Part shown: one piece after another, positions 16,419 through 33,706 of the stretch
Layout: every line of letters begins with the position of its first letter
How positions within the stretch are numbered: the first letter of the stretch is position 1
DNA from: Escherichia coli
GTDB lineage: Bacteria; Pseudomonadota; Gammaproteobacteria; Enterobacterales; Enterobacteriaceae
Length of the DNA stretch: 64,000 nt
Assembly: GCF_003991155.1 (NCBI RefSeq)
Contig: NZ_CP031293.1
Strand: one strand, 5' to 3'
The notes under the pieces: generated by a model
What the model was told of the DNA's origin: nothing
Database searches by the model: none
Seen by the model: only the letters and a program-made list of their open reading frames with translations
Position numbers and translations under genes: made by a program

Positions 16419-18322
16419 ACACCTCTTTATTTGAAGATCTACTTACACTAATCAAGAAAAAGAGTTCGATAAGGAATACAGAACAAGCAGTAGAGTTAAT
16501 TTCATTATTTATTTTTTTACATTATATAAAATTATATCTTTATGAAAATGATAAAAGATTTTCAGATATAAAAAACATATCAAGCAACAACATTAATGAA
16601 ATTAAATATTATTATCAGCAACTATATGAAAGTTTTATTTTCTCGATAGATATAAAAAATATAAACCACGACATGCTTGAAAAGCTCAGGAGTAAGATAG
16701 GTTTTTTAATTAATAACATCAATGACCATGAAATAATTAAATATATAGATTATTCTATTTCGCAGATACATTCACTTACAGAATTCTATCAATATGCAAA
16801 TTCTTATCAATCTTTAATTCTTAGGATGGTTAATGAATCGGGTCGTTCAGGTGAATATGTTACTCCATCTGCTTTAGTTCAGCTCATGGTTGAAATGTTA
16901 TCACCTACAGATGGCACATCAATCTACGACCCCGCATGTGGAACTGGGGGTTTATTAATAGAGTCAGCACGATATATTAAAGGCAACAGTTTAAACAAAA
17001 ACTTAAATTTAAATTATTCCCTTATTGGTAATGACACATCATCATTTGCCTGTCTAATCTCAATTGTTAACCTTTTAATCAATAAAGAATTTAATTTTGA
17101 AATAATACTAAAAGATAGCTTAGATATAAATTATAAGAATACAAAATATGACTTTATTTTAACTAACCCACCATTTGGGAAAAAGAGCGGTTGGGATAAT
17201 ATTCATATTGACACACATTATAAAGGACCTAATCTAGACTATTACTTCCTGGAGCATGTTATTGACTCTCTCGCTGTTAATGGCAAAGCAGCCATAATAT
17301 TACCAGAGCGTTTTTTATATGATGTGAGTAAAGAGTGCATCACTCTTAAAGATAAGATCTTCCAAAATTATAATTTAGATTGTATTTTATCTATACCGTC
17401 AGGTGCATTGCTTCCTTACACTGCAGTAAAATTATGTATTCTTTTTATAAGTAATCCTGGCCCAACAGATAGAATATTTTTCTACAATTTAAATAATGGT
17501 GAAAAATACTCACGTACAAATATTATAAAATTCGATGATTTTATAGATTTTTTAGAGTCAGCAAAAAATAGAACAATAACTGAACACTCCTGGATTATCA
17601 ATATTAGTGATACACCTTCATCTTATAACTTACTCTTAAAAGATAAAGAGCGAAACTCATATGAGTTTCTTAGTGATTCTATAGTTAACATTGAACAGAC
17701 AATACGTAATAATGAATTATTACTAACAGAGTTGTCTTTATTAAGAGAAAAAATAGCAATCTTAGAGTCAACAATAAAAAATCATTCGCATGAATATGAA
17801 TTTGAGAGACTTAAAGTTGGAAATATTGCAATAGTAAAATCCGGAAATTTATTACAAAAAAACAGGCTGTTACCCACTGGACCAATTCCTGTATACGGTG
17901 GAAATGGAGTTATTGGATATAACAATGAGGCAATGGTAAATGGTGAAAATATTATTATTGGTAAGGTCGGAGCTCTTTGCGGAAACGTTCGGTATGTTCA
18001 AGGTGATATTTGGGTGACAAATAACTCATTAATTATTAAGAATTATTTACCAAATAAAGTTTTAACACCCTACCTTGCAAAGTTATTATCTACTTTAAAC
18101 TTAAGAAAGCTCGCCGTTGGTACCGCTCAACAATATTTAACCACAACACAAATAAAAAATGTAGAAATTAGCATTCCACCTTTAACGACCCAGCATAAAT
18201 TAAATATGTGGCTTGATGAGTTAGATAATACCCTTGAACAATATAATAAGCTCATTGAAAAAATAATGAATGATAAGCGAGAACTTAAAGAGAATTTGTA
18301 TAAAGGTCTTTTAATAGAATAG
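16415..18322 (+). CDS. N6-adenine DNA methyltransferase (HsdM-like) fused to a single type I specificity (HsdS-like) target-recognition domain, 635 aa
   Basis: Motif I YDPACGTGGLL and motif IV LTNPPFGKK; C-terminal ~180 aa resemble an HsdS TRD plus conserved helix (...GKVGALCGNVRYVQGDIWVTNNSLIIK...); translationally coupled to the upstream ATPase. Confidence 0.75.
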   Translation: MNTSLFEDLLTLIKKKSSIRNTEQAVELISLFIFLHYIKLYLYENDKRFSDIKNISSNNINEIKYYYQQLYESFIFSIDIKNINHDMLEKLRSKIGFLINNINDHEIIKYIDYSISQIHSLTEFYQYANSYQSLILRMVNESGRSGEYVTPSALVQLMVEMLSPTDGTSIYDPACGTGGLLIESARYIKGNSLNKNLNLNYSLIGNDTSSFACLISIVNLLINKEFNFEIILKDSLDINYKNTKYDFILTNPPFGKKSGWDNIHIDTHYKGPNLDYYFLEHVIDSLAVNGKAAIILPERFLYDVSKECITLKDKIFQNYNLDCILSIPSGALLPYTAVKLCILFISNPGPTDRIFFYNLNNGEKYSRTNIIKFDDFIDFLESAKNRTITEHSWIINISDTPSSYNLLLKDKERNSYEFLSDSIVNIEQTIRNNELLLTELSLLREKIAILESTIKNHSHEYEFERLKVGNIAIVKSGNLLQKNRLLPTGPIPVYGGNGVIGYNNEAMVNGENIIIGKVGALCGNVRYVQGDIWVTNNSLIIKNYLPNKVLTPYLAKLLSTLNLRKLAVGTAQQYLTTTQIKNVEISIPPLTTQHKLNMWLDELDNTLEQYNKLIEKIMNDKRELKENLYKGLLIE

Positions 18323-18402: not shown

Positions 18403-21400
18403 TTAATAATGCTCCTCAATATACCCATACGCCTTCTGGAACAACTCTTTATCTTTCCCTAGTCCAAACTGGGCCAAGGTCAGTAAAAGCGCCTTTTGGA
18501 TTTCGCGCGGGCCACTGTTGGAATTTTGCCAGCCATCAAAGCGGGTAGCTTTCACAATTTTATCAATTTGCTCTACAACATCACCGATTAACTTAGGGGT
18601 AGTTTCCGGACGTGTTTCGAGGAAAAGCTTAGTCAACGCCTGTTTATTATCAGCTTCAGTTACTGGGCGCTCGCCCGTTTCGCGCTCGGCTTGAACGGTA
18701 TCTTTCGCTGCATCCAACAGGCCTTTCAACCAGTCAATGGCCTTGATAACACCAGCTTCATAGTCCTGACGCAGTTTTTCAAGGCGCTCGCCCAATGCCA
18801 CAAATTTAGGATCATGACTGCCGCGCAAACGTCCCATAAGATCAATCTCCAGGCGTTTGGCACGTTGTTCCTGCTCTTTAGCGGTCAGGGTAAAAATAGC
18901 GTGCTCGTCCATAACCAACTCGTCAATATCATCGCGAATACGATTGATATCAGTATGCTCATGGATCATCTTGATTGTTTCGGGGCCAAGGGCAGCCCAA
19001 ACAAGCGCACCTGTCTGCCCTACCGGACGCACCGATTCATAAATTTGCGCCAGCCATTTATAGTCCTGACGATAAGAGGTCAAAAAAGGATCTGGGTTGA
19101 TAGCTGACCATAACTTGGATAACACACCAAAGCTGGCAGCGAATTCATCGCGTTTCTCGTTGGTCGGCAGGCATTCCTGCGCGGCCATAATACCTTCAAA
19201 ACCAGCTATGGACCGATCCACACCAGGGAAGAAGGACAAACATTTATTCAGTTGTAACGGCAATAGCTCTTTAAATGCCTCAATTCCCTCTACAACTCCT
19301 TCAATTTCTTCAGGGTTATAGGCCAGAGCGGTACGCAGATTTTCGAAAACGCCGAGGTAGTCGATAATTAATCCCATGTCCTTGCGTACAGTATCGGTTT
19401 CGTACAACCGGTTGGTTCGGCACATGGCCTGAAGAAGAGTATGATCGCGTAGAGGCTTATCGAGGTACATGCAGTAGCAAATCGGGGCATCAAAACCCGT
19501 AAGCAGCTTGGCGGTTACGATAATAAGCTGTAATGGATGTTCAGGATCTTTAAAGCATTCAATCAGATCCTTTTGCACCTGTTCTTCGGCATCAATGTGC
19601 TGCCAGCGTTCAAAATCGACTTGTTTGACTGGCAGCTCCAACTCATCATGCCATTTAAGCCAATCCTTGTTGAGCTTGTCTTTTTTGCCACCCTCTTCAA
19701 CTTTAACCGGAGCCTGGTCAACGTTCATAACCACTTCAACCGCATCAAAACCAAGCTTTTCACCGAGCAAATAATACATCTGCACACAGGCTTCGCGATC
19801 GTATACCACAACCATGCCTTTCATCTTTTTCGGCATAACATGGTTGGTAAAATGCTCAGCAATATCATTACTCACCGCAGCCATACGCCTAGGGGATTTC
19901 AGCATGATTGCCAGCTTGCCTGCACGCCTGGACAATGCTGCTTTTTCTTCTTCATCCAGGTTGTTTTCGGTAGCCAGTTGCTCGAACTCTTCATTGATGG
20001 CATCACGATCCACTCGGAGTTCAGCCAGCCGAGGTTCGAACTTCACCGGGTTAGTTGCGCCATCCCGGATCGACTGCTTATAGCTATAGCGGCTCATATA
20101 GCGACCTGGATCTTCTTCGGCACCGAACAATTTGAACGTATTACGATCAATGCCAGAAATCGGAGTACCAGTCAGGCCATAGAAGTGGGCATTGGGCAAC
20201 GCCCAGCGCATTTTCTCGCCTAATCCCCCTTCCTGTGTACGGTGAGCTTCGTCAACCAACACAATGATATTGTCCCGGTTGTTCAGGCCATTAGGGTTGC
20301 TATCGTCAATTTCGATATCTTTAAATTTAAAGATGGTGGTGATTAAAATGCCACGGCTGTCTTGTTCTATGTATTCACCCAACTTTTTGCAGCTTTGCAC
20401 TTTAATCAGATTCTTAACGTCGGCTCCGCCAAAGGTCTCGTTAATTTGGCTGTCCAGATCTCGCCGGTCCACAACGATAAGTACCGTCGGGTTTTTTAAC
20501 GCATTATCGGCACGTAGCATTTTGGCGGCGTAAAGCATCAACAAGGATTTACCCGATCCCTGGAAATGCCAAATAAGACCTTTTTTTGGATAGCCTCTGC
20601 GAACACGCTCAACAATTTGTTTTGCAGCTTCAAATTGCGGATAACGCGGCAGGATTTTAACGCGTTTAGGTGGAGTATTTTTGCCCGTTTTGACGGTTGA
20701 AAATAATGCAAAAGATTCAAGTAACTGCAATAAGGTTTGTGGATTTAACAAACTCTCACAGCTGTTGAGTACCGATGCTAATCCCGGCAGAATTTCATCA
20801 CGAAGCTCAGTATTATGCCAGGGCCCCCAGTCTTTAACTCTGGCATTAATGGCACCATAGGCAAAGGTTTTTCCTTCGCTGGCAAAGCACAGCAAGTTAG
20901 GTACAAAGAAAGATTCAACATTTTTCCAGTAGTACTTTTTGCCACCCATGAAATCGGCAGCACCGTCTTGCCAGGTCACGCTGGGGCGTGTTGCGGTTTT
21001 AACTTCGCCCACTACTAGCGGTATGCCGTTCACATAAAGAACAATATCAAAATAGACTTCAGTGGCCGCGATATAGCGAACCTGCTGCGCCACCACAAAG
21101 TGGTTGTTCTCTATATTGTCAAAATCAATCAGATTGATGGTGATATGGTCGCCATTCTTACCAAAAGGCAAGGTTTTGTCGGCCATCAACCATTCCTGGA
21201 AGTTTTCATTGGCCTTTACCAAGCCGGTATGGCGGGCTTCTAAAACCACTCCTCGCAGTTTGTAAATGACCTCATCGGCATAGTCAGGCTGTCTGCCGAT
21301 ATCAGGGTTTAACGAACAAAGCGCGTCTTTTAGCCACTCATCAACGAAGATATCCTGCGCTTGTTTAGGCAGGTTTTCACCGTGGCAGTAAGTCCACTTG

Positions 21401-21465
21401 ACTCCGCTTAAACCTTTTAAACGGTCGATAATTCCATTTTCTGTGACGGTTTGTTCGTTAAACAA
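18403..21465 (-). CDS. hsdR: type I restriction enzyme R subunit (HsdR), 1020 aa
   Basis: N-terminal PD-(D/E)xK-like DIVLYVNGIPLVVGEVK; helicase motif I HFQGSGKS and DEAH box IVLVDEAHRTQ; directly follows hsdS. Confidence 0.9.
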   Translation of the reverse strand: MFNEQTVTENGIIDRLKGLSGVKWTYCHGENLPKQAQDIFVDEWLKDALCSLNPDIGRQPDYADEVIYKLRGVVLEARHTGLVKANENFQEWLMADKTLPFGKNGDHITINLIDFDNIENNHFVVAQQVRYIAATEVYFDIVLYVNGIPLVVGEVKTATRPSVTWQDGAADFMGGKKYYWKNVESFFVPNLLCFASEGKTFAYGAINARVKDWGPWHNTELRDEILPGLASVLNSCESLLNPQTLLQLLESFALFSTVKTGKNTPPKRVKILPRYPQFEAAKQIVERVRRGYPKKGLIWHFQGSGKSLLMLYAAKMLRADNALKNPTVLIVVDRRDLDSQINETFGGADVKNLIKVQSCKKLGEYIEQDSRGILITTIFKFKDIEIDDSNPNGLNNRDNIIVLVDEAHRTQEGGLGEKMRWALPNAHFYGLTGTPISGIDRNTFKLFGAEEDPGRYMSRYSYKQSIRDGATNPVKFEPRLAELRVDRDAINEEFEQLATENNLDEEEKAALSRRAGKLAIMLKSPRRMAAVSNDIAEHFTNHVMPKKMKGMVVVYDREACVQMYYLLGEKLGFDAVEVVMNVDQAPVKVEEGGKKDKLNKDWLKWHDELELPVKQVDFERWQHIDAEEQVQKDLIECFKDPEHPLQLIIVTAKLLTGFDAPICYCMYLDKPLRDHTLLQAMCRTNRLYETDTVRKDMGLIIDYLGVFENLRTALAYNPEEIEGVVEGIEAFKELLPLQLNKCLSFFPGVDRSIAGFEGIMAAQECLPTNEKRDEFAASFGVLSKLWSAINPDPFLTSYRQDYKWLAQIYESVRPVGQTGALVWAALGPETIKMIHEHTDINRIRDDIDELVMDEHAIFTLTAKEQEQRAKRLEIDLMGRLRGSHDPKFVALGERLEKLRQDYEAGVIKAIDWLKGLLDAAKDTVQAERETGERPVTEADNKQALTKLFLETRPETTPKLIGDVVEQIDKIVKATRFDGWQNSNSGPREIQKALLLTLAQFGLGKDKELFQKAYGYIEEHY

Positions 21466-21466
21466 T

Positions 21467-22633
21467 TTATTGTCCCCTCAGAAGAATATTCAAATAACTG
21501 GACTTGAGTTTACGAATTTTTTGAAGCCTTGATTTAGCTTCTCTATAACTGTTTTCGGCTAAATGTAATATATCCTTATATTTCCCAAGCTCTCTTGATG
21601 GTGGTATAACCATCTTCTGAGAATGTACATCGGCATCATTAACAGCCGGGAAACTTGTACCAACTGCCAAATTGGTTAATGAATAAGTGAATTGCTTCGA
21701 CAAAGTGAAATAATAAATAAAATCGGACAAATCATTTTTTGCCCTTAGAACAGTAAAACCTGTTGATGCTATTGAATCATTCAATATTTCAGACACATAA
21801 AACGTAGCTCTATGATTGGGTCTAACAGTGCTAACAACAATATCTTTTTCCTTAAGAATACGCCGAGCTCGGCTGGGGGCTTCAGCGAAATGGTATTCTT
21901 TAGGAGTATCGACAAAACCAGGAAAAGTCACTGAAGATATATCTATATACCTAATCAGCTTATTTTTATTGGCATCATTACTTAACAAGTCAAAATTAAT
22001 ATTTGATACATCCTTCAATCTAACTTTGTTATATCCAAATGGCAGTTTTTCTTTTCGATCAAATGTAGTCAACCGATCAATTAATCTTTGAAATAAATTT
22101 AATGCAGACCTTTCAGTCTCATTTGCACAATGTAATACTTGTTCGATTTTTTTTAAAGAATTTAAAAAATCAACTTGCAGATCCATTTCAGGAATAATAA
22201 ATTCCTGCTGACTTAAAACTTTCCATTTTATCGTTGGAGACAATGACCCCTCCGAAATTGCTACTGCACGATTCATGAAAGTATCAGACTGCATAATAAA
22301 GGGTAAAAACTCAGGTATTACAGTATTTGAATTTGCCTCCAGAACCATGGCATGAGCCGAACAGATACAATCCCAATCTGCTACCGCGACTTTACGTTGA
22401 TAAGCACGACGCTTACCAAAAATAATCTGGCCTTTTTTCACTAAAAGCTTCTGCCCTTCAACGTCACTGGGTGTACCATGACGTTTGATTTTCAGGCTGT
22501 CAGGGTCTAAATGCTCCAAACCGACATAAATTTCAAGGTCTGTCTCGCTCGGTTCCACTCGTTTAGAGATATGTTTAGCGATATCGCCAAACTTCACCAT
22601 TTGCCAGCCTTCAGGTAATTGCTGTTCTGTCAT
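21467..22633 (-). CDS. hsdS: type I restriction-modification specificity subunit (HsdS), two TRDs
   Basis: 388-aa protein with two variable regions separated by conserved spacer; second TRD coding region markedly AT-rich; abuts hsdM and hsdR. Confidence 0.85.
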   Translation of the reverse strand: MTEQQLPEGWQMVKFGDIAKHISKRVEPSETDLEIYVGLEHLDPDSLKIKRHGTPSDVEGQKLLVKKGQIIFGKRRAYQRKVAVADWDCICSAHAMVLEANSNTVIPEFLPFIMQSDTFMNRAVAISEGSLSPTIKWKVLSQQEFIIPEMDLQVDFLNSLKKIEQVLHCANETERSALNLFQRLIDRLTTFDRKEKLPFGYNKVRLKDVSNINFDLLSNDANKNKLIRYIDISSVTFPGFVDTPKEYHFAEAPSRARRILKEKDIVVSTVRPNHRATFYVSEILNDSIASTGFTVLRAKNDLSDFIYYFTLSKQFTYSLTNLAVGTSFPAVNDADVHSQKMVIPPSRELGKYKDILHLAENSYREAKSRLQKIRKLKSSYLNILLRGQ

Positions 22634-24133
22634 TTACTGCTCCACCTTGCTTTCAACGTTATATCCAAGCTCTGCAAGGCTCTGGAATAATTTATTAGTT
22701 TGCTTTTTCAACTGAGTACGGCTTACTTTCCACGCTTCAATCGCATGTTCAATATTATGTACTTCAGCGTTGTTTTGTGCTTGCACATACAGTGGAATTG
22801 AAAGGTTATAAAGGTTTTCTTTAATAGCTTCAATATTCACTAAAGAGGTTATATCGTTTTTTTTCTCCGGATTAAAATAAGCCTCGCATAATACCTCCAA
22901 ATCCTCATCGGATAAGCGACTATGAGCGCGTTCACGGGTAACATGCTCAACCCCGTTGATAAATAACACTTTATTTTTGCGTTCGGCAGGTTTATTGCAA
23001 TTAAGCACCACCACACAAGATTCCATCGGCGAGTTATAAAACAGATTTGGTCCCAAACCAATCACCGCTTCAATAATGTCCGATTCAATCACCTGTTTAC
23101 GAATGGCCTGCTCAGAATCACGGAACAGCACACCGTGTGGCCAGAGCATAGCAGCACGACCGGTATCGGGTTTTAAACTTTTAATTATATGGGTATAAAA
23201 AGCATAATCAGCGCAGCCCTGCGGTGGGACACCATAAAGATTTCGACCATACGGATCAGCAGCAAACTTGTCACGATTCCATTTTTTAATGGAGTACGGT
23301 GGGTTGGCAAAAATCACATCAAACTGCTTGAGCCGATCGTTTTCAATAAACTTTGGCTCAGCCAAAGTATCACCACGCAGCACATCAAACTCTTCAATAT
23401 CGTGCAGGAACATATTCATACGGGCGATTGCGGATGTCAGCAGGTTCACTTCCTGACCATAAAGGTGCACAGAGCGCCACTCTTCCCCTCTAGCACGCAG
23501 ATCCATCACTGCATTTAGCAACATCCCACCTGTGCCACACGTTGGATCATAGGCGGTTTCACCCGGTTTTAAGCCCATAATGCGCGTCATTAAATGCACG
23601 ACTGTTCGGTTGGTGTAGAACTCTGCTGCCGTATGACCGGAATCATCAGCGAACTTTTTAATCAGGTATTCGTAGGCCTCACCAAGATCATCCTGAGCGA
23701 CAGATTTAATGCCTAGCGGAATTTGACTGAAATGTTCAATCAGATCAGCCAGCAGATGATCGGGCAGGCGCTCTTTATTGGTCCACTGCGCATCACCGAA
23801 GACGCCATGTAAACGCGGATTATTGGCTTCAATTAGTCGAAGCGCATTCTGGATCGCTTCACCAATGTTTTTACTGGTATTGCGTACCTTTTCCCAACTG
23901 GCTTCAGAGGGAATGTTGAAACGGTGAAACATCGGCATGGCGGCATATTCAGCATCACCTTCATGGAGTTCCAGCGCTTCGTTATATTCTTCCAGATAGA
24001 CATCTGACAGGCGTTTGTAAAACAGCAACGGGAAGATATACTGCTTGTAGTCTGATGCGTCAATTTGGCCACGAAGAAATTCGGCGGCTCCCCAGAGCAG
24101 CTCTTCCAGCTTTTTATTACTCATAGTACTCAT
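22634..24133 (-). CDS. hsdM: type I N6-adenine methyltransferase subunit, paralogue B (499 aa)
   Basis: Motif I YDPTCGTGGMLL, motif IV FANPPYSIKKW; start overlaps stop of upstream hsdM paralogue (24130-24133). Confidence 0.85.
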   Translation of the reverse strand: MSTMSNKKLEELLWGAAEFLRGQIDASDYKQYIFPLLFYKRLSDVYLEEYNEALELHEGDAEYAAMPMFHRFNIPSEASWEKVRNTSKNIGEAIQNALRLIEANNPRLHGVFGDAQWTNKERLPDHLLADLIEHFSQIPLGIKSVAQDDLGEAYEYLIKKFADDSGHTAAEFYTNRTVVHLMTRIMGLKPGETAYDPTCGTGGMLLNAVMDLRARGEEWRSVHLYGQEVNLLTSAIARMNMFLHDIEEFDVLRGDTLAEPKFIENDRLKQFDVIFANPPYSIKKWNRDKFAADPYGRNLYGVPPQGCADYAFYTHIIKSLKPDTGRAAMLWPHGVLFRDSEQAIRKQVIESDIIEAVIGLGPNLFYNSPMESCVVVLNCNKPAERKNKVLFINGVEHVTRERAHSRLSDEDLEVLCEAYFNPEKKNDITSLVNIEAIKENLYNLSIPLYVQAQNNAEVHNIEHAIEAWKVSRTQLKKQTNKLFQSLAELGYNVESKVEQ

Positions 24134-25629
24134 ACCTCGAAACCTTCTTTGATAAGCAGGGCCTCCAGCTCCTCTTCTGCTTTTTCCAGCTCAGCCAGCT
24201 TCCGTTGAAAATCTTTGAGCGCCTCTTCCACAGTGATGGTTTCTTCTTCGAGTGGCTTTTGCACATAACGAGCAATATTTAGATTGAAGTCATTTTCTTC
24301 AATCTCCTTCAGAGAAACCCAGCGTGCAACGCCTTCGATTTCTTTTGCATCTGGCCCTTGTTGCGCCTGGTCATGATAGATTTGGTATATTTCATCGGCC
24401 TGCTTGTTGGACAGCGTATTCTGCGCACGTCCCTTGGTATAGATTTCTTCAGCATTGATGATCAATACATGATCTTTATGCGCGGCCGGACGTGATTTAC
24501 GCAGCACCAAAATACACGCAGGAATCCCAGTCCCATAGAACAGGTTGGAAGCAACACCAATAATCGCCACAATGCGATTCTCTTGCAGTAATTTGGTTCG
24601 AATTGCCCCCTCTGCGCCGCCACGAAACAGCACACCATGAGGTAATACGACTGCCATACGTCCATTGTCGTTAAGTGAAGCAAACATATGCTGCACCCAG
24701 GCAAAATCACCATTTGTTTTAGGCGCCAGGCCATATTGCTTACGGCCATAGGGATCGTTCGACCACAGATCGTATCCCCATTCTTTTAAGCTAAATGGTG
24801 GGTTGGCAACAACGCAGTCAAAGGTTTCTAAACGATCGCTTTTTAAAAATTTAGGTTCGCGTAAAGTATCCCCTCGGACAATATCGAAATCTTCCTGTCC
24901 ATGCAGGAACAGATTCATACGCGCAATAGCTTCCGTCGTTAAGTTCTTTTCCTGACCCTTGATTTTTAGTAAACGCGGATCACCACCATTTTCTTTTACA
25001 TGGTGGATGGTCTCAAGCAGCATACCACCGGTACCACAGGCGGGATCGTAGACACTCTCACCGGCTTTTGGATCAAGAATGTTAACCATCAAACGAACGA
25101 TAGTTCGTGGGGTATAGAACTCACCGGCTTTCTTATTGGCTTTGTCTGCAAAGCGTTTGATCAGATACTCGTATGCGCGCCCCATATCATCGTCACGGAC
25201 ACTAGAAACGCCAAGGTTCACCTTATTGAAGTGATTGAGTAACGTAGCCAGTAACTCATCAGAAAGGCGTTCTTTATTGGTCCAGCTGGCATCGCCAAAA
25301 ATGCCATGCAGTTTAGGGTTTGCCAGTTCTATACCACGGAAGGACTCTTTTAAAGCCTGACCGATGTCCTTGGTCTCAGCGAAAACATCGCGCCAGTGGC
25401 AATTTTCAGGTATCTGAATACGGTGAAACATCTTGCCCTTGGCAAGCTCTGCATCCCCAATGCTCTCCATCGCATCGGCAAATTCTTCGTCATACACGTC
25501 ACAAATGCGCTTGAAGAACAGGATGGGGAAAATGTACGTTTTGTAATCTGACGCATCAATGGGCCCTGTAATAATATGGGCTGCATGCCATAGATGGGCC
25601 TCGAGATCTTTTAGGTTAATCAGTGTCAT
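24130..25629 (-). CDS. hsdM: type I N6-adenine methyltransferase subunit, paralogue A (500 aa)
   Basis: ORF 24130..25731 trimmed to MTLINLKDLEAHLW; motif I YDPACGTGGMLL, motif IV VANPPFSLKEW; homologous over full length to paralogue B. Confidence 0.85.
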   Translation of the reverse strand: MTLINLKDLEAHLWHAAHIITGPIDASDYKTYIFPILFFKRICDVYDEEFADAMESIGDAELAKGKMFHRIQIPENCHWRDVFAETKDIGQALKESFRGIELANPKLHGIFGDASWTNKERLSDELLATLLNHFNKVNLGVSSVRDDDMGRAYEYLIKRFADKANKKAGEFYTPRTIVRLMVNILDPKAGESVYDPACGTGGMLLETIHHVKENGGDPRLLKIKGQEKNLTTEAIARMNLFLHGQEDFDIVRGDTLREPKFLKSDRLETFDCVVANPPFSLKEWGYDLWSNDPYGRKQYGLAPKTNGDFAWVQHMFASLNDNGRMAVVLPHGVLFRGGAEGAIRTKLLQENRIVAIIGVASNLFYGTGIPACILVLRKSRPAAHKDHVLIINAEEIYTKGRAQNTLSNKQADEIYQIYHDQAQQGPDAKEIEGVARWVSLKEIEENDFNLNIARYVQKPLEEETITVEEALKDFQRKLAELEKAEEELEALLIKEGFEV

Positions 25630-25872
25630 TGTTGTCTCTTTTCGATCCTGCAGTGCTTGAACTCTCAGCAACTCATGGATTTCACAGTAAAAAAGCAAGT
25701 AAAGCGATTCCACAACCACCTGAGCGTTCAATATGTATGACGCCTTTACCCAAGTTGCTTAAATCAAGGAAATTGCCAGAGATAATACTCTGGCATCAGA
25801 ATGATACCAAGTTGAAGGGCTGATTTCCGCATCAATACCTTGTGGTAATAGGGGATTACTCTTTTACCCTTA

Positions 25873-26910
25873 TTGGCGCAAAATGGCGGCATTTCCTCAT
25901 TTCTCCATCGGAGCATCTTACGCGCTATAACCACTCTCGTTTTTTCCTATTCCCATGCAGATGAAGCACTACGCAATGAACTTGAGAAGCATCTCTCCCC
26001 GCTGAAGCGAACCGGGAAGATCACAACATGGCACGATCGCCGCATCGTTCCTGGTCAGGAGTTCGAACGTCAGATCGACCACTATTTTTCGCAAGCAGAT
26101 ATCATCCTGATCCTGATCAGCAGTGACTTTATTGCTTCTGATTACTGCTATCAGGTAGAGATGAAAAACGCACTGGAACGGCATAACCGGGGCGAGGCAG
26201 TGGTCATTCCGGTAATTTTAAGAGACTGTGCATGGCATCAGTTAGAATTCGGCAGCATTATGGCGGCGACTATCGACGGTAAACCCATCACTAAGTTTGC
26301 CACCCACGATGAAGGCTACGTTCAGGTCGTCGAGGCTGTCTCGCGTGCCATTGCCCGGATGGAAGCCAAAAAACCACAGCAAACCATACATATCCCTTCA
26401 CCGGCTCCGGCGAATCCGATCTTTCAGGGAGTAGATTCCGTTTTTACACCGCGTTCAAGCAACCTTACTCTACCCAAGAAATTTACCGATCTGGATAAAG
26501 ATCGTGCCAGACGTGAGGGCTTTGAATATGTTGCCCGCTATTTTGAAAATTCGTTAGATGAACTCAAAAAGCGCCACCCCGGATTAGATATCGATTTTAA
26601 TCGGCTTGATACAGATTCATTCACCTGTGCCGTGTATATCAATGGCAGTAAGGTCGGCCAATGTGGCATCTGGCGAGGCAATCAACATCATGGAATGGGA
26701 GATATCTGTTATAGCCAGGATAATGTTGTTCGAAACAGTATTAACGAAACTCTAAGCCTTGCTGATAACGGCCAGACTCTTGGTTTTCGTGCTCTGATGG
26801 GAGGCTTCAGTCGAGGAACTTCACGAGACGAACTATTGACCAATGAAGGTATGTCGGAACATCTCTGGGAAATGTTCTTCGGGCTAATCAAGCAAAGAAT
26901 GTCCCGATAA
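25873..26910 (+). CDS. TIR-domain protein with uncharacterised ~180-aa C-terminal domain
   Basis: TIR-like N-terminus (VFSYSHADE..., WHDRRIVPGQEF, ADIILILISSDFIASDYCYQVEM with a Glu at the expected catalytic position); only in-frame start is TTG at 25873 and no clear Shine-Dalgarno, so the N-terminus is uncertain. Confidence 0.65.
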   Translation: MAQNGGISSFLHRSILRAITTLVFSYSHADEALRNELEKHLSPLKRTGKITTWHDRRIVPGQEFERQIDHYFSQADIILILISSDFIASDYCYQVEMKNALERHNRGEAVVIPVILRDCAWHQLEFGSIMAATIDGKPITKFATHDEGYVQVVEAVSRAIARMEAKKPQQTIHIPSPAPANPIFQGVDSVFTPRSSNLTLPKKFTDLDKDRARREGFEYVARYFENSLDELKKRHPGLDIDFNRLDTDSFTCAVYINGSKVGQCGIWRGNQHHGMGDICYSQDNVVRNSINETLSLADNGQTLGFRALMGGFSRGTSRDELLTNEGMSEHLWEMFFGLIKQRMSR

Positions 26911-27094: not shown

Positions 27095-28150
27095 TCATGC
27101 TGGCAAATACGTTTTCTTAAGCGGCACCAATAGCTTAGTCTCTATATCCACTTGCTCATAGTTTTCAACTAACGCGCGTACCAAATCATCCAGCGTCCAT
27201 AGCGTCAACGGGATTGTAGAACGATCGGCCTCATAACGCGCATCCTTGCTGAATCCGCCGGTACTGACATACAGCCCGCGATCGTCTTTATGGCGGCCAC
27301 CGATAAAGCTACGGATTTGCTGGCTGCTCATCTGTTCCCGCCGGTGCTTCACCTCAACAATAATGCGCGGATTTTCAAACCCAAATCCGTCAGGCGAAGC
27401 AATGATGTCTTTCCCACGGTCAGCACCCGCAGGCGATACCTGAGTTTTATATCCCATGCTGCGTAACACGCCAGCGACCAGATTCTGCATCTCATCCCAG
27501 TCGAGACGGTTGATACGATCCTTGATGCCTTCAAAAGCGATCATTTCCATGTCGCGCAGAGGATTAGAAACGACCTCATCCTCTTCACCTGAAACAGGTA
27601 CTTCCGGCACGATATCTGAGACAGGCTTATTGCCCTGCACTAATTCATTCACAGCAAAATCAGGCACCTGAAAAACTGTCAGCGTTGAACCAAGGGTGTT
27701 TCTAGTTGCATCACTCAGACTATCGCGCTTAATCTCTTCCGCATTCCACTTCACTTTACGGGCGATGCCCATGCCATCTTCAAGCCACTCGGCATGAAAC
27801 TCAAAATCTGACGCTATTTTCCCTATTAAATAGGTCCGATTAGAAGGTGAATAAGTGATAGCCCAGTCGCCTTTCTGCATTTCATTCACAAAGCGCCAGA
27901 CCTGAGAAGCTCCAGAACGAACTGTGCCTGGCTTAGTCTGTGGCTCAAGCTCCTGATACCGGGTAAACAACTGCTCTCTTGAGCATCCAGGTTTCACATA
28001 GGGAGCGAGCTGCGACCAACCAATTGCAACAACCTGTTTGTCTCTGAAGTCGTCGTACAATTTTCCGCCATCACCGCGGATCATCCACATCTTAGTCGCC
28101 ACAATAATTCCTTCTGAAAATACTTCATCGTTATACCGGGACGTGATCAT
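27095..28150 (-). CDS. Mrr-family (PD-(D/E)xK) restriction endonuclease with N-terminal PUA/EVE-like putative modified-base reader; probable type IV enzyme
   Basis: C-terminal domain alignable with E. coli Mrr catalytic region (DIIASPDGFG...IIVEVKHRR...LYVSTGGFS); start set at ATG 28150 preceded by AAGGTGG; N-terminal RFVNEMQKGDWAITYS resembles EVE-domain core. Confidence 0.7.
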   Translation of the reverse strand: MITSRYNDEVFSEGIIVATKMWMIRGDGGKLYDDFRDKQVVAIGWSQLAPYVKPGCSREQLFTRYQELEPQTKPGTVRSGASQVWRFVNEMQKGDWAITYSPSNRTYLIGKIASDFEFHAEWLEDGMGIARKVKWNAEEIKRDSLSDATRNTLGSTLTVFQVPDFAVNELVQGNKPVSDIVPEVPVSGEEDEVVSNPLRDMEMIAFEGIKDRINRLDWDEMQNLVAGVLRSMGYKTQVSPAGADRGKDIIASPDGFGFENPRIIVEVKHRREQMSSQQIRSFIGGRHKDDRGLYVSTGGFSKDARYEADRSTIPLTLWTLDDLVRALVENYEQVDIETKLLVPLKKTYLPA

Positions 28151-28212
28151 TCCATTCAGCCACCTTATCCAGGGGAAAAACACCGATAAGATGGCTAATC
28201 AAAATGTCTGTT

Positions 28213-31200
28213 CTAAACCTGACGCCTATCAAGACTATTATAAATAGCCTCAATCTCACCTTTCAGGTTATCACCAGAGTAAACCATCGATGTATCGTAT
28301 CGTTCATATCGCGCTTCCCGTGTCGCACTAAACCAGTTGAACGATCCCACGCATAGCAAACCATCATCACCAATAACAATTTTGCTATGAACACGGTTTA
28401 CCAGCTTTGTAGCAATACCCAGCGCATTCAGTTTCTCCAGCGCCGCTTTAAGGTTCTGCTGCTTCTCTTTTCGCTTCTCAAAATCTTTATGTTCAGTGTT
28501 GTAGCTTCTGTCAGTGACTATCGTGACGTTAATACCACGTGAACACGCCGCAATCATGGAATCAAGAAAACCCGTTTGCTCCAGCTTTTGCCAGGTCAGC
28601 CATGGAGAAACTATCGTGATGTGTTTATCGGTATTTTCAAACGTCTGATTCAGGAAGTTATCATGCTGCTCCACACCATGAAGTGTGTAGATTTTGGTCT
28701 CGGAAGTTTTTAAATCCTTACGCTCTTTATAATCAAAAGAGAGCGCATTCTTCTCGAACTCAAAGAGATATTTTGCCAGCAATCCTCGCGGAGATGAGGG
28801 AGCCTGGATCTCAAACAGATCCATATCGCCGAAGACCAGGAAGCTATCCTTCGCACGGGAGACTGCAACATTCAGCATGCTGTTATCGCTATCAATAAAC
28901 CCGCCGTCTTCATGTTTTGAATAGACTGGCGAGAATATAACAATCGCTCTTTCCGCTCCCTGAAGAGAGTGCACGGTGCCCACTGTGAGCGACTTTTCAT
29001 TCGCGCCCGTACTGATACCTTGTTTACCCAGCGCCTGTTTTATAGTGGATACCTGCGCGCTAAAAGGCGTCACGATACCGACAACTTCATGAAGCGATTT
29101 GCCGTAATGCGCTTCAATATTTTGCTGGTTCTCTGCCAACCAGGCCGCTATCGTTTCAGCCTCAAGCAAATTATATCTACTTCCACTACTTGCCTGCTCT
29201 CCTTTACCATCAATATGGAGATAACCCATTGCGGGCATTAAATTGCTCTCTTCACGCCCTCTTTTAGGCAACAACTTACCGTGATAGCAGAGCGTATTAC
29301 AGTATCCAATAATATTATCGAAGCACCGGCGGTGTTCATATAGGTACATACCACGAGCCAGTTCGGGATCATATTGATAGCGCGAAGCAAACTGCGCTAT
29401 TTTCATAACGCTGCCAGATGCGGCACTTTTACCAAGGTCTGCGATTGCCGTATATTTCTCGGTAATCTCTTCTTGCGTACTGCCAGACAGAATTTTTTCC
29501 GCCAGCATGTTACCGACATCAATCGCGGGAGCAATACTCCATATTGGCGGGATCTGCTCCGTATCGCCAATCACTAATGCCTTCTTAGCTAATGCAAACG
29601 AGGCAGCAGCCACTTCAGGAAGCACCTGCCCGGCTTCATCGACAATGAGTAAATCGGCAAAATCATACAAATAACTTTTCTCGAATTTACGTTGTCCTTT
29701 GTGCTCACTTATCTGCATATTGCCGGGCAGCATATAGCATGTCATCACCACACATGGAGTGAGTTTCATTCGACGTTGCCAACGGGCGGTTACCCCTTTA
29801 GCGCCTTGTTTCTTCTTCTCTTCCTGCAGATCATCAATTCTGGCCATATCCATCAGCCAACGACCTTCCCAGTAGTGAGTCGTCAGTAAAAATGCAGGGA
29901 AGCGAATCTGCGTATCAGCCAGTTCATCGGCCTGTGAGAAGCTCAGTTCCTCGTCGCCCTCATACCCTAAATCAAATGCCAGCCTCTGCCACTCCTGAAC
30001 CGCCTGCTGTTCTTTAAGAACGATTTCATGGGCGGAGTCAATCTGCTGCCGGTATGTTGTTTGCTCGCGCTCAGCGGAATTGAGCAGCCCATCAATATTA
30101 CGTTCGATAGTTTCAGGATCAGACCACTGATTTCCTGCAATCAGCGCGCCTAATTTATCTTCGAGAAACAGCTGTATTTGGTACTGTCGCTTATTGCGAA
30201 CCGCCGGGAGCCAGGAAAATAATGAATAGATCAGTGATTCACCGGCGCGATATTTTTTCCATTCCGTTTTAGCACTCTTCAGTAGAGTGACTTTTTGTTC
30301 TTGTCCGGAAAGTAATTTATTTAAATTATCGAGATATTGCTCAATATCATTAGCAATAAGCTCACGCGCAGCCCGAATCTGGCTTAACATTTGCCATGTT
30401 GCGTTCAGTCTTATCAGTTGCTCGGATTTTGCTGCCAACTGACCATGCAGGAGTTCAATGATCTTTTCAGGGGATGAACACTCTTTTTCAGGAAAGGCTG
30501 CCTTAGCCTTCTCCAGATAAAACAGCAGTGCATCCTCTACATACTCTTTTGACTCAACCTGGGTGAAGAAATCTTCAGTTTGATATTTTTTGGCTGCCTC
30601 AGCTTTACGAGTGCTTGAGGGAAAATAAGCGCCGAAGCTTTTCAGCTCTGGCAACCATCGTCCGGCCATCGCACCTGAACCTTGCGAAAAGTCTTTCCCG
30701 AATGCCTCAATAATGTTCGTTACAGCCTGGTTATTCGTTGAAGTCGCGATAATAACCGGAGGCTCAGATTTTTCGAGAGCTGCTCTGGCCCACTGCGTGG
30801 CGATGATAGAAAGCACCAGCGTGGTTTTTCCGGTTCCCGGAGGTCCATTAACAGCAAGGATATCGCCATGTCTTGCATCCAGAAAATGGCTTAAGGCATC
30901 GCGCTGAGCCTTTGCCAGCGGAAACTTATCTCCGGAGTGTCCAAGCCTGTCGCTGAATTTTGCTCCTGGGGCCAGCAAAGACTCTGCAGCATGAACCTCT
31001 CGCGAGGCGAAGCGATTGAAGAGCGGCACATCCTTCTTGCAAACAAGCAGGTGATCATAAAGAGAAAGGATATGGAAACTGGCACCGCCAGATTGCGCCG
31101 TTTTAACAATATAACCGTGCTCAGCGAGTACATATTGCTCAGGATTTTTAATCCAGTCGCCGGCAACATTCTTCAGCAGCCTCTCTGAATCATCCAGATA

Positions 31201-31728
31201 TTGACGCCACTCCTGCTGCAAGGCTGCATATCGTGCTTCCCGTTCTTCATCCGTTTCGGCAGTCTTATCAATGCTGTCATCAAAGTTGATAGAGAACGAG
31301 GTATGGATTGTCTTGTATTTGTCATACTGCCCAATATCACCAATCGAAAATGCTCCTTTTGGCAAAGGTTCAAGCAGGTCTCTGGGAATGGAGGTCGCTG
31401 GCGTCGGATATAAAAAACCCTCACGGCTTAGCAAGGCTGGCGTCACTAGCGGGGTAACAATATCAGGTGCGCCTGCGGAACGGTCCTTACCATGCTGCAG
31501 TAACCGAAAATAAACTTTTGGGCGCAAGACGACATCGACCGTTTCGACATCGTCTTTTTCTCCCTCAAAAAATTTACTGACAATCGCTTCGTCAAGACGT
31601 CCCGCCGCTATCCCATGCCAGTGAGTGAAATTTTTGGCGTCTTTCCGTTCAAAACTGCCCTTTCCTGACTCAGCATCTGCAAGCGAGTTGCGCCAGTATG
31701 AGGCAAACCCTAAAGCATTTTCATCCAT
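28213..31728 (-). CDS. SF1 (Upf1/DNA2-like) helicase fused to C-terminal PLD-family nuclease, 1171 aa; architecture resembles type II Mokosh
   Basis: Walker [13 protein letters not shown], Walker [10 protein letters not shown], helicase motifs [16 protein letters not shown] and [12 protein letters not shown]-terminal HKD motif [20 protein letters not shown]. Confidence 0.75.
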
Positions 31729-32053
31729 TACCAGTCCTATGACTCAATGAAATCCATTGATTTATCGAATATAAAATCACCGTATGGATAACTATTGTCC
31801 ACGTTGAAAGGCTGGCTGCAATGTTTTGTTCACGCTTCGATACAAATACTCAGGTTATACGGAGTTCAGAAAACGACCATATCATGTTGCATGGCACATA
31901 AAAGCTTTATAACCGAAGCAGCAAAGGATTACCGGCTGCGCAGCACGCCCCGAAAGCCCGTGAGCCCTGCTGGACAGCGTTCAGTGCAATATTGGAGCCT
32001 GTAAGTTCAGAAAATATCGCTGTCGAAGATGGTTCTGTATGTAGGCGCGCCAG

Positions 32054-32431
32054 CTATCGTTTTGTCCGATGCTTGCGAATAAAAGCATTCAAAATGTCGC
32101 CTTCACCATGCATGACAGAAAAAGAATATTCACATTCTTTCTTTATCAAGATTCCACATAATTCCTGGTGCAAATCAACATTAACTCCCTTTCCTTTCTG
32201 CGCTTTCTTCACACCGAGCTCACATGAACTGATTAATTCAACGTTACAGGGTTTCTTCAAACAATTCACACCATCAATTAAGCCATGGAGAATGCATCTA
32301 TTTGCGGTCGTATCACTGTAGGAGAAAGTCAGATATTTTATTTTTCCTTCGCATTCCAGCACAATTTCCGCCGAACCTTCACGTGTTGCAGCATCACAAC
32401 CTCCTGTTGAATATATTTTTACCATCTTCAT
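32054..32431 (-). CDS. small RNase HI-like protein (125 aa) lacking the catalytic acidic residues
   Basis: Alignable by eye with E. coli RNase HI (VKIYSTGGC vs VEIFTDGSC; TTANR vs TTNNR; NVDLHQEL vs NVDLWQRL) but D10, E48, D70 positions are T, I, S/C; good SD (AAGGGG) before ATG. Confidence 0.6.
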   Translation of the reverse strand: MKMVKIYSTGGCDAATREGSAEIVLECEGKIKYLTFSYSDTTANRCILHGLIDGVNCLKKPCNVELISSCELGVKKAQKGKGVNVDLHQELCGILIKKECEYSFSVMHGEGDILNAFIRKHRTKR

Positions 32432-33279: not shown

Positions 33280-33621
33280 TATTACGTCCTGTTTTTGCAG
33301 AGTAAATTATCACCAGATTATATCTGAAAAGATCGTTTACTAAACTGATCTGCTTACCTGCAAAACGGTACTGCAAACGCTAATACTCAGAACCATTAAG
33401 AGGAACAAGCAGGTGCATTCCGCTGCCATCGGTCAGTTTGTATTGCTTATCCCCTGCCTCTAGGTACAAGCATTTTCGAAACGGAAATACCATCATCTGT
33501 TGGTAGATGTACGTTGAAGTTGGTTCGCCTTGAGAGAGTTAATATAGCGGGAATGATAGGTAAATACTGGATTCCAGGCACAAAAAAAGCCGCCCTTGAG
33601 CGACTCGATTTGCATACGATG

Positions 33622-33706
33622 TGGTGCCGAAGGCCGGACTCGAACCGGCACGTATTTCTACGGTTGATTTTGAATCAACTGCGTCTACCGATTTCGCCAC
33701 TTCGGC
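33622..33706 (-). tRNA. leuX: tRNA-Leu (CAA anticodon), 85 nt
   Basis: Reverse complement folds as cloverleaf: acceptor GCCGAAG.../...CTTCGGCACCA, anticodon loop with CAA, long variable arm; adjacent to ahr as in K-12. Confidence 0.95.

Follow-up and report, generated by a model that had tools for sequence, protein, structure and literature searches.

Assignment of a 1171-residue Escherichia coli protein to MkoC, a predicted single-gene type II Mokosh anti-phage system

What is the large protein that RefSeq names 'AAA domain-containing protein' across hundreds of E. coli genomes, and against what would it act? The window analysed here is a stretch of 64,000 nucleotides of E. coli chromosome, and the gene for this protein lies in it on the minus strand (28213..31728), inside a defence island of ~20 kb between nanS and tRNA-Leu(CAA), the latter annotated as leuX in K-12.

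Identity and genomic setting of the gene

The ORF list and its translation, the PADLOC MkoC profile and the RefSeq CDS WP_000344088.1, which carries the above name in the identical E. coli genomes of RefSeq, all delimit the same coding sequence, an uninterrupted reading frame that starts with ATG, ends with TAG (28213-28215) and specifies 1171 residues with a predicted mass of 131.6 kDa. The preliminary description had placed a frame of this length at 28213-31728 but gave no strand; a plus-strand reading of the interval was rejected because stops occur throughout it, which puts the gene on the minus strand, and every motif quoted at the time recurs exactly (at aa 295, 696, 918, 954 and 1114). 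A 3.5-kb ORF with such motifs and database matches is, judged by sequence, far beyond chance.

Comparison with the MkoA, MkoB and MkoC profiles, which had been proposed as a check, singled out MkoC: PADLOC profile PDLC03924 was matched at positions 1-1135 of 1136 by residues 1-1169 (E=0, 1684 bits), whereas MkoA as the second-best profile gave a partial match of 129 bits and MkoB was likewise partial and far weaker. Type II Mokosh was described as a single gene with an N-terminal helicase and a C-terminal phospholipase D (PLD) nuclease (Millman et al. 2022), the arrangement found here (aa 272-969 and 1028-1143, respectively), and its validated representative, SG150, is the 1171-aa MkoC of E. 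coli 5-366-08_S1_C1 (Millman et al. 2022). Over the first 399 residues, the stored N-terminus of SG150 to which this comparison extends, 395 are identical in the window protein, and the four substitutions (D131E, R175H, V200E and T389N) all fall outside conserved columns. As a proxy for the full SG150 we used P0033, a database protein whose first 399 residues are exactly those of SG150; it agrees with the window protein at 1135 of 1148 residues with every motif unchanged, so that some 13 substitutions would be expected between the window protein and SG150 over the full length. Moreover, the predicted mass agrees with the 132 kDa reported for EcMokosh II in a 2025 preprint, and the truncation boundary A995/L996 of that preprint falls on A995/L996 of the window protein. 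The profile match, the single-gene architecture and the identity to the validated protein thus bear out the type II Mokosh assignment of the preliminary description, and by these comparisons the gene is almost certainly mkoC, an allele of the tested E. coli MkoC, for which anti-phage defence is predicted from that relative. Type II Mokosh was already known in E. coli, and nothing scientifically new on Mokosh is established here; the mkoC label is of annotation value, and the name places a validated defence against an ssDNA phage in the leuX island. Within the literature collection searched, no paper devoted to the mechanism or structure of Mokosh came up, and no MkoC structure was among the PDB matches found by sequence or by Foldseek.

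Several lines of evidence suggest that mkoC stands alone. First, the cloned SG150 insert starts at the base that matches window position 32054 and holds only mkoC and 326 bp upstream of it, and SG150 was expressed from its own native promoter. We therefore presume that the 325-bp upstream intergenic region (31729..32053, minus strand), which differs from that of SG150 at 1 base, holds the native promoter of the window gene; a simple sigma-70 consensus scan returned no site within it. Second, distant MkoC homologues and another E. coli allele occur without a common partner, in unrelated contexts. In all, mkoC is present in 888 of 5426 complete E. coli genomes and at full length in 839. The 125-aa ORF further upstream (32054-32431) was rejected as a partner, as it lies outside the validated insert and occurs in 142 genomes versus 888 for mkoC; it gives a half-length match to RNase HI, in which by eye the equivalents of the catalytic residues D10/E48/D70 are T/I/C.

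On the other side of mkoC lies a gene for an Mrr-like restriction endonuclease (27095-28183, same strand; PADLOC PDC-S02, E 1e-82), 29-129 bp downstream, with which MkoC might act jointly; MkoC could, for instance, make DNA accessible to the Mrr-like enzyme or mark it for cutting. This proximity and the co-occurrence of Mokosh II with type IV restriction (882 of 975 instances, with non-random co-localisation in E. coli; Wu et al.) speak for such a partnership. However, the validated construct contains mkoC and no Mrr-like gene, the mkoC/Mrr-like junction is found in only 119 genomes compared to the 839 with full-length mkoC, and the neighbours of the distant homologues and of the other E. coli allele are unrelated to the Mrr-like gene. 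In addition, the 3' end of mkoC contains a promoter-like site (10/12 matches) directly ahead of the Mrr-like gene, which suggests that this gene is transcribed separately. On the basis of the junction counts and the unrelated contexts elsewhere we rejected the Mrr-like gene as an obligate partner, and we regard joint action of the two as quite improbable.

Domain architecture of MkoC

One homologue search recovered nothing beyond fragments and nearly identical sequences from E. coli, and a diverse alignment was built from a 50%-representative search. Residues 1-270 (30919..31728, minus strand, as are all features below) form a family-specific alpha/beta domain without an assigned function, in which the motifs YWRxSLAD (aa 11-18) and IPRDLLEP (aa 114-121) are conserved. 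Pfam gave no match within these residues; beyond the MkoC family they have no detectable relative, and no solved structure matches them. Hence the earlier statement that an N-terminal domain of ~290 aa is unassigned still holds by Pfam and by fold comparison, with its extent now set at aa 1-270.

The domain is followed by a helicase core whose first RecA1 part (aa 271-360, 30649..30918; Pfam AAA_11 from aa 272) is the top conservation block of the protein. It includes Walker A (helicase motif I, GPPGTGKT, aa 295-302, 30823..30846), in which G295, P296, P297, G298, G300, K301 and T302, 7 of the 8 residues, are invariant in the alignment and T299 is conserved at >=90%. Between Walker A and Walker B sits a helical insertion of ~295 aa within RecA1 (aa 361-655, 29764..30648), which the AlphaFold2 (AF2) model and the conservation profile depict as mostly all-helical and poorly conserved, column conservation being low over roughly aa 421-600. 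The full-length model (pLDDT 93.5) predicts long helices at residues 420-458, 462-495, 508-530, 538-586 and 597-630. Upf1-like helicases carry accessory 1B/1C insertions at the corresponding position, which the MkoC insertion would by analogy occupy. The rest of RecA1 with Walker B, together with RecA2, spans aa 656-985 (28774..29763) according to Pfam, PDB and Foldseek matches; here Walker B (motif II, VDEAGQ, aa 696-701, 29626..29643) shows invariant D697, E698 and G700, and further helicase motifs that had been quoted lie at aa 918 and aa 954 (VAVSRAK).

The preliminary description had read these residues as a Upf1/DNA2-like helicase core, and three kinds of comparison corroborate this. Pfam placed AAA_11 at 272-490 and 679-729 and AAA_12 at 776-969 (E 2e-22); PDB sequence matches over aa ~836-972 comprised SETX, IGHMBP2, DNA2 and UPF1, with Sen1 also matched; and Foldseek with the full-length model put UPF1 (E 2e-16), SETX (2.7e-16), IGHMBP2, Aquarius, DNA2 and ZNFX1 on top. 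The best matches by sequence and by fold are thus Upf1-like SF1B enzymes and not an unrelated helicase family. As far as sequence and model can tell, the core is a Upf1-like SF1B helicase or translocase whose Walker motifs, A and B, are both intact, and its translocation polarity would, by the habit of this family, be 5' to 3'.

The C-terminus (aa 1012-1171, 28216..28695) is delimited as a PLD-family nuclease domain by Pfam, PADLOC, profile matches and the model. Pfam PLDc_2 was matched at 1028-1143 (E 1e-9), and PLDc was a further Pfam match; PADLOC returned MkoB (E 4e-17) and DrmC; and a family profile of the domain matched the nucleases Nuc (1BYR, E 4e-8), NucT (6EHI, 1e-6) and MitoPLD/Zucchini (4GGJ, 2e-6), with coverage of the PLD core including the HxK motif. 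In the model the domain consists of alternating strands and helices (pLDDT >90). The HKD motif that had been noted at the C-terminus is located at aa 1114, inside the PLDc_2 domain: it reads HSKIVIGD (aa 1114-1121, 28366..28389), is followed by GSFNW and has H1114, K1116, D1121, G1128, S1129, N1131 and W1132 invariant. The pattern H-x-K-x4-D matches exactly once in the whole protein, and the homologues that were checked likewise have one C-terminal HKD per chain. Rather than occurring outside a PLD fold, the motif appears to belong to a PLD-family nuclease, a fold supported by the profile matches and by the predicted secondary structure.

Candidate substrates and mechanism

Activity data on a close relative come from the 2025 preprint, in which EcMokosh II, a 132-kDa monomer in solution, was challenged with 11 phages, of which the ssDNA microvirus SECphi17 alone was restricted. 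In vitro it cut ssDNA, namely the virion DNA of SECphi17 and M13, the two ssDNA phages of the panel, and no dsDNA, E. coli chromosomal DNA included, while plasmid DNA was nicked (2025 preprint). That preprint is internally inconsistent about dose, stating that cleavage needs 1 uM protein and also that it works at all concentrations. Guided by analogy to these data, we propose that the helicase core would load on exposed single-stranded phage nucleic acid, be it an incoming ssDNA genome or replication intermediates, that MkoC would then translocate 5' to 3' using ATP and that the PLD domain would cut the strand via a covalent phosphohistidine intermediate. The duplex host chromosome would largely be spared because dsDNA is only nicked, not cleaved, in vitro. 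Since each MkoC chain supplies a single HKD motif and two are required for a PLD active site, two MkoC molecules would probably have to meet on the substrate for cleavage, a step that we infer purely. We lean narrowly towards this ssDNA-sensing and cutting mechanism; identity as mkoC and mechanism taken jointly, in one blended estimate, appear likely.

Two observations touch on these steps. In the Mokosh systems tested, in vivo defence was lost once the helicase ATP site or the PLD active site was mutated (Millman et al. 2022), and yet Walker A/B mutants of EcMokosh II still cleaved ssDNA in vitro (2025 preprint), so that an ATP site required for defence in cells is dispensable for cleavage in the tube. 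Likewise, pairing on the substrate contrasts with the monomeric state in solution reported for EcMokosh II.

Alternatively, RNA might be the target: the Upf1-like helicase would scan RNA/DNA hybrids or transcripts of the phage, RNA would be cut by the PLD domain and ssDNA cleavage in vitro would be a side activity. Such a system, the original Mokosh hypothesis, would parallel MOV10L1 and Zucchini in the production of piRNAs, or UPF1 in nonsense-mediated decay. By sequence and by fold, the best matches of the MkoC helicase indeed include the RNA helicases UPF1, SETX/Sen1, IGHMBP2, Aquarius and ZNFX1, the closest solved helicases being RNA helicases, and the PLD profile matches Zucchini/MitoPLD, a single-strand-specific endonuclease that acts on RNA. 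Homology of the E. coli Mokosh domains to MOV10L1 and PLD6 (Cury et al.) points in the same direction, and RNA was absent from the published EcMokosh II cleavage panel. Against this, the purified protein cuts ssDNA, and the sole phage restricted among the 11 is an ssDNA phage, whereas all phages of the panel make mRNA, so that a wider range would be expected of a general RNA sensor. Moreover, DNA2, which acts on DNA, is as good a relative of the helicase, and the best match of the PLD domain is Nuc, a nuclease of both DNA and RNA. We consider an RNA target unlikely.

A further possibility is an abortive-infection effector, in which a triggered PLD domain would kill the infected cell by destroying host nucleic acids or a membrane phospholipid such as cardiolipin. 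True phospholipases and cardiolipin synthases belong to the PLD superfamily, and MkoC gives weak matches to them; cardiolipin hydrolase, the molecule name of the matched MitoPLD structure, reflects how that protein was first described; and EcMokosh II nicked plasmid DNA in vitro. However, among the PLD matches the nucleases Nuc and NucT rank highest, and purified EcMokosh II cut ssDNA but no dsDNA, chromosomal DNA of E. coli included. Fusion to a nucleic-acid translocase also argues for a nucleic-acid substrate of the PLD domain, and the AF2 model is confidently folded throughout, with no membrane-binding segment evident. Host killing by this route therefore seems very improbable.

How would cleavage of single-stranded phage nucleic acid, the mechanism towards which we lean, be held in check? 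Because the conserved N-terminal domain has no detectable relatives beyond the MkoC family and no match among solved structures, and a nuclease with a single HKD is monomeric in solution, we tentatively suggest, as a possible though doubtful scheme, that MkoC is kept inactive as a monomer and becomes active when single-stranded phage nucleic acid, as the substrate, induces two molecules to pair on it, the N-terminal domain serving as sensor or as dimerisation/regulatory module. The MkoC variants P0149 and P0160 keep the N-terminal domain and the helicase and have no PLD domain; if the scheme were true, they would represent the same sensor coupled to other effectors. About a dozen further MkoC variants are likewise PLD-less.

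Relation to known systems

MkoC resembles the Upf1-like SF1B helicases (UPF1, SETX/Sen1, IGHMBP2, DNA2, Aquarius and MOV10L1) in its two RecA domains and helicase motifs, whereas its identity to the eukaryotic members is only 11-14%. It also differs from them in its N-terminal domain, which is not a CH domain, in the fused PLD nuclease and in a helical insertion (aa 361-655) that is much longer. DNA2 also joins a nuclease to a helicase, of the PD-(D/E)XK type and at the N-terminus. With Nuc (1BYR), NucT (6EHI) and Zucchini/MitoPLD (4GGJ) the PLD domain of MkoC shares one HKD per chain in a domain of ~150 aa. These three enzymes are stand-alone homodimers and thereby form a two-HKD active site; unlike them, MkoC is reported as a monomer in solution and has its PLD domain tethered to a helicase.

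Type I Mokosh, for which phage spectra and counter-defences (T4 Alt, glucosylation) have been reported, consists of the kinase-helicase MkoA and the separate PLD protein MkoB. The window protein has the same two catalytic modules, its helicase half matching MkoA profiles (E 4e-38 and 1.5e-32) and its PLD domain MkoB (E 4e-17), but encodes them in one gene instead of two, with the PLD domain fused. Unlike for MkoA, Pfam found no Ser/Thr kinase domain in the window protein, and in PADLOC its N-terminal 270 aa had no match to MkoA and none of the neighbours of mkoC matched MkoB. The missing kinase domain, the fused PLD and the lack of an MkoB neighbour led us to reject a type I identity.

In K-12, yjhR (b4308), an annotated pseudogene by nanS, is the counterpart of the last 338 aa of an MkoC protein, retaining the end of RecA2 and the PLD domain with the HKD intact; most of the helicase is missing from it, as is the whole N-terminal domain. 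Like mkoC of the window it lies within the leuX-nanS interval, but in a 40-kb island, at the end nearer to nanS, whereas mkoC of the window adjoins leuX. Since yjhR is only 67% identical to the window protein, it would be the remnant of a different allele lineage. By contrast, the window protein and the validated SG150 are of equal length (1171 aa) and alike in domain order and motifs.

Domain architecture and conservation of MkoC

The mkoC gene is a single unbroken open reading frame at 28213-31728 on the minus strand of the window, running from an ATG start to a TAG stop at 28213-28215 and encoding a product of 1171 residues (computed mass 131.6 kDa, pI 5.7). The plus strand of this interval carries stop codons throughout, which identifies the minus strand as coding, a detail absent from the preliminary description. 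All motifs quoted in that description were found in the product: GPPGTGKT at residue 295, VDEAGQ at 696, a 15-residue motif at 918, VAVSRAK at 954 and the 20-residue stretch with the HKD motif at 1114, the H-x-K-x4-D pattern matching exactly once in the entire protein. Together with Pfam matches to both halves of a Upf1-type helicase (AAA_11, residues 272-490 and 679-729; AAA_12, residues 776-969) and to PLDc_2 (residues 1028-1143), this bears out the proposed 1171-residue helicase-PLD nuclease fusion.

A full-length AlphaFold2 model of MkoC (pLDDT 93.5, pTM 0.89) comprises an alpha/beta N-terminal domain, a RecA1 domain interrupted by an insertion of ~295 residues (361-655) consisting mainly of long helices, a RecA2 domain and, reached via a short linker, a C-terminal domain of alternating strands and helices. 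UPF1, SETX, IGHMBP2, Aquarius, DNA2 and ZNFX1 were the best Foldseek matches in the PDB (E 2e-16 to 2.5e-11), and the PDB sequence matches agreed with this ranking, so that the designation of the helicase as Upf1/DNA2-like proved correct. Similarly, profile matches of the C-terminal domain to the PLD-family nucleases Nuc (1BYR, E 4e-8), NucT (6EHI, 1e-6) and MitoPLD/Zucchini (4GGJ, 2e-6) place the HKD motif in a predicted PLD-type domain, as had been proposed.

A cut-off of E<=1e-30 gave 1139 MkoC relatives among 1.84 billion cluster representatives, many of them 1120-1200 residues long and 30-52% identical in alignments that run from residue ~1-10 to ~1170. In an alignment (A1) of 82 relatives and the window protein (83 rows), invariant or nearly invariant columns comprised Walker A (295-302), D697/E698, Q725, Q923/G924 and R958 of the helicase and H1114, K1116, D1121 and GSFNW (1128-1132) of the PLD core, and conservation was poor across residues ~421-600 of the RecA1 insertion. 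The N-terminal domain is conserved family-wide, with two standout motifs (YWRxSLAD at 11-18 and IPRDLLEP at 114-121) and invariant G104 and L119, and was modelled alone with a pLDDT of 88.4 and a pTM of 0.80. No Pfam match to residues 1-270 was found for the window sequence or any of 37 members, a PDB sequence search with this domain gave nothing significant, and the 50 AFDB50 matches listed were all MkoC-family helicase-PLD proteins or fragments thereof. As these searches gave no lead, the domain, already described as unassigned, is family-specific. We rejected the idea that it represents a hidden second PLD half.

Roughly a dozen of the family representatives, 960-1040 residues long, retain the N-terminal domain and helicase without the PLD domain, including the database proteins P0149 (locus L007, 4001-6973), P0160 (locus L008, 4001-7087), P0155, P0158, P0161, P0167 and P0168. 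PADLOC hits of P0149 and P0160 cover positions 1-972 of the 1136 in the MkoC profile. P0160 is followed 8 bp downstream by a 209-residue ORF with no PADLOC match, no recorded Pfam match and nothing resembling the PLD profile, and P0149 is convergent with a PADLOC 'PLD_Helicase' gene. These PLD-less relatives may be effector-swapped or split variants.

A chromosomal defence island between nanS and leuX

The window is E. coli chromosome, and many complete genomes carry mkoC with 100% identity. The gene occurs in 888 of 5426 genomes (nearly full length in 839), always on the chromosome, and RefSeq names its product merely 'AAA domain-containing protein' (WP_000344088.1). The MkoC family is also found on plasmids (65 records, 43 near full length) and is essentially absent from phage genomes. 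Here mkoC lies in an island of ~20 kb that extends from nanS to the tRNA-Leu(CAA) gene (33622-33706, minus strand; leuX in the K-12 annotation), is bordered by core genes (fim and nan at one end, ahr and idn at the other) and ranges from 30 to 47% G+C. In the window an HNH endonuclease gene directly follows leuX (interval compared, 33280-33621), so the defence island itself is without an integrase here. In E. coli 2016C-3878, a strain otherwise identical, leuX and the HNH gene are separated by a ~12-kb element (locus L001, 2824-13943) that carries an integrase, a recombinase and a 'phage baseplate protein'.

The island consists of stacked defence genes. An overlapping pair at 14685-18322 (plus strand; ~30% G+C versus ~47% around it) encodes an AAA ATPase with weak AriA, PtuA and 'restriction system-associated AAA' matches and an N6-adenine methylase fused to a single HsdS-like target-recognition domain, and possibly forms a methylase-linked defence module of its own. 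It is followed by a type I restriction-modification operon with hsdR (18403-21465), hsdS (21467-22633) and, upstream of these single genes, a tandem hsdM pair (22634-25731, minus strand) whose products of 499 and 496 residues (RefSeq) share just 47% identity and each match type I methyltransferase profiles over the full length. Divergent from its neighbours, a gene at 25873-26910 (plus strand) encodes a TIR-domain protein resembling ThsB, which matches the whole length of the PADLOC ThsB1 profile (E 2e-153); no ThsA match was found among the island genes scanned, which suggests either an orphan Thoeris sensor or a TIR gene that defends on its own.

After a gap of 29-129 bp, mkoC is followed immediately downstream on its own strand by a gene for an Mrr-like restriction endonuclease (27095-28183, minus strand; PADLOC candidate system PDC-S02, E 1e-82, and a weak type IV endonuclease match), an arrangement in line with the report of Wu et al. 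that Mokosh II and type IV restriction co-localise in E. coli. We rejected this gene as an obligate MkoC partner, since no more than 119 of 5426 genomes have this junction, the Mrr-like gene has a promoter-like site ahead of it, another E. coli mkoC allele stands alone in a pap pathogenicity island, next to an integrase, distant MkoC homologues have unrelated neighbours, and the validated construct of SG150, the type II Mokosh of Millman et al. 2022, is a single gene. Upstream of mkoC, the N-terminal half of a degenerate 125-residue ORF (32054-32431, minus strand) is similar to the opening half of RNase HI (positions 2-70 of 151 in NCBIfam PRK00203, E 1e-10). It was likewise rejected as a component, because by eye the catalytic residues D10, E48 and D70 are replaced by T, I and C and it occurs in 142 genomes versus 888 for mkoC; PADLOC gave no match for it. 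Thus, neither neighbour belongs to the Mokosh system.

In E. coli K-12, the literature cites yjhR as Mokosh. In MG1655, yjhR (b4308; locus L003, 41016-42032) is an annotated pseudogene that retains only the C-terminal 338 residues, including an intact HKD motif, of an MkoC allele sharing just 67% identity with that of the window, and it adjoins nanS rather than leuX, indicating that at least two diverged mkoC lineages have occupied the leuX-nanS interval.

Proposed mode of action

PLD active sites use two HKD motifs, which Nuc, NucT and Zucchini provide as homodimers. As the homologues checked carry one C-terminal HKD per chain, cleavage probably requires two MkoC molecules, which would come together on the substrate. 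EcMokosh II, the protein of a 2025 preprint (10.1101/2025.07.10.664194), is monomeric by mass photometry and, among 11 phages, restricts only the ssDNA phage SECphi17. The same study reports that, of the substrates in its panel, the purified protein cleaved ssDNA alone (virion DNA from two ssDNA phages; SECphi17 and M13 shown), that dsDNA was uncut and plasmid nicked, and that cleavage in vitro persists in Walker A/B mutants. The preprint is inconsistent on concentration: the text of its section 8 has EcMokosh II active throughout the range 10 nM to 1 uM, whereas two legends (Figure 4c and Extended Data Figure 7) restrict cleavage to 1 uM, a discrepancy that bears on the need for a protein-protein encounter.

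On the basis of these data and the anatomy of MkoC, the SF1B core would load onto exposed single-stranded phage nucleic acid and translocate, and the PLD domain would then cut the single strand; the duplex host chromosome would be largely spared because dsDNA is uncut in vitro. The main rival, the original idea that the target is RNA or RNA/DNA, may still hold, because the substrate panel contained no RNA and most close helicase relatives act on RNA; it fits the ssDNA-phage-only spectrum less well.

Relation to characterised Mokosh systems

Comparison with the PADLOC Mokosh profiles was decisive for MkoC: residues 1-1169 match positions 1-1135 of 1136 (E=0, 1684 bits), and the type I profiles match only the shared helicase half (MkoA, 129 bits) or the PLD domain (MkoB, 61 bits). 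This architecture is precisely the type II Mokosh definition of Millman et al., who found that defence by the Mokosh systems tested was lost in vivo on mutation of either the helicase ATP site or the PLD active site. Their supplementary table lists SG150 as the validated type II system (E. coli 5-366-08_S1_C1, MkoC, 1171 aa). SG150 differs from the window protein at four of the first 399 residues compared (D131E, R175H, V200E and T389N), and the 326 bp cloned upstream of its ATG differ at one base. The database protein P0033, our proxy for the full length of SG150, is identical to it over these 399 residues and to window MkoC at 1135 of 1148 positions, with all catalytic motifs unchanged. Moreover, EcMokosh II is reported to be 132 kDa and was truncated as M1-A995 and L996-end (10.1101/2025.07.10.664194), a boundary that coincides with A995/L996 of window MkoC. 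Judged by these near-identities, window mkoC is an allele of the E. coli type II Mokosh gene characterised previously; the type II assignment of the preliminary description is correct, but already known. The residual interest lies in the N-terminal domain and the puzzle of one HKD per monomer, both shared by the whole family and not specific to this locus. Every feature that sequence can address agrees with type II Mokosh, and the kinase domain and separate MkoB that distinguish type I are both absent from the window system.
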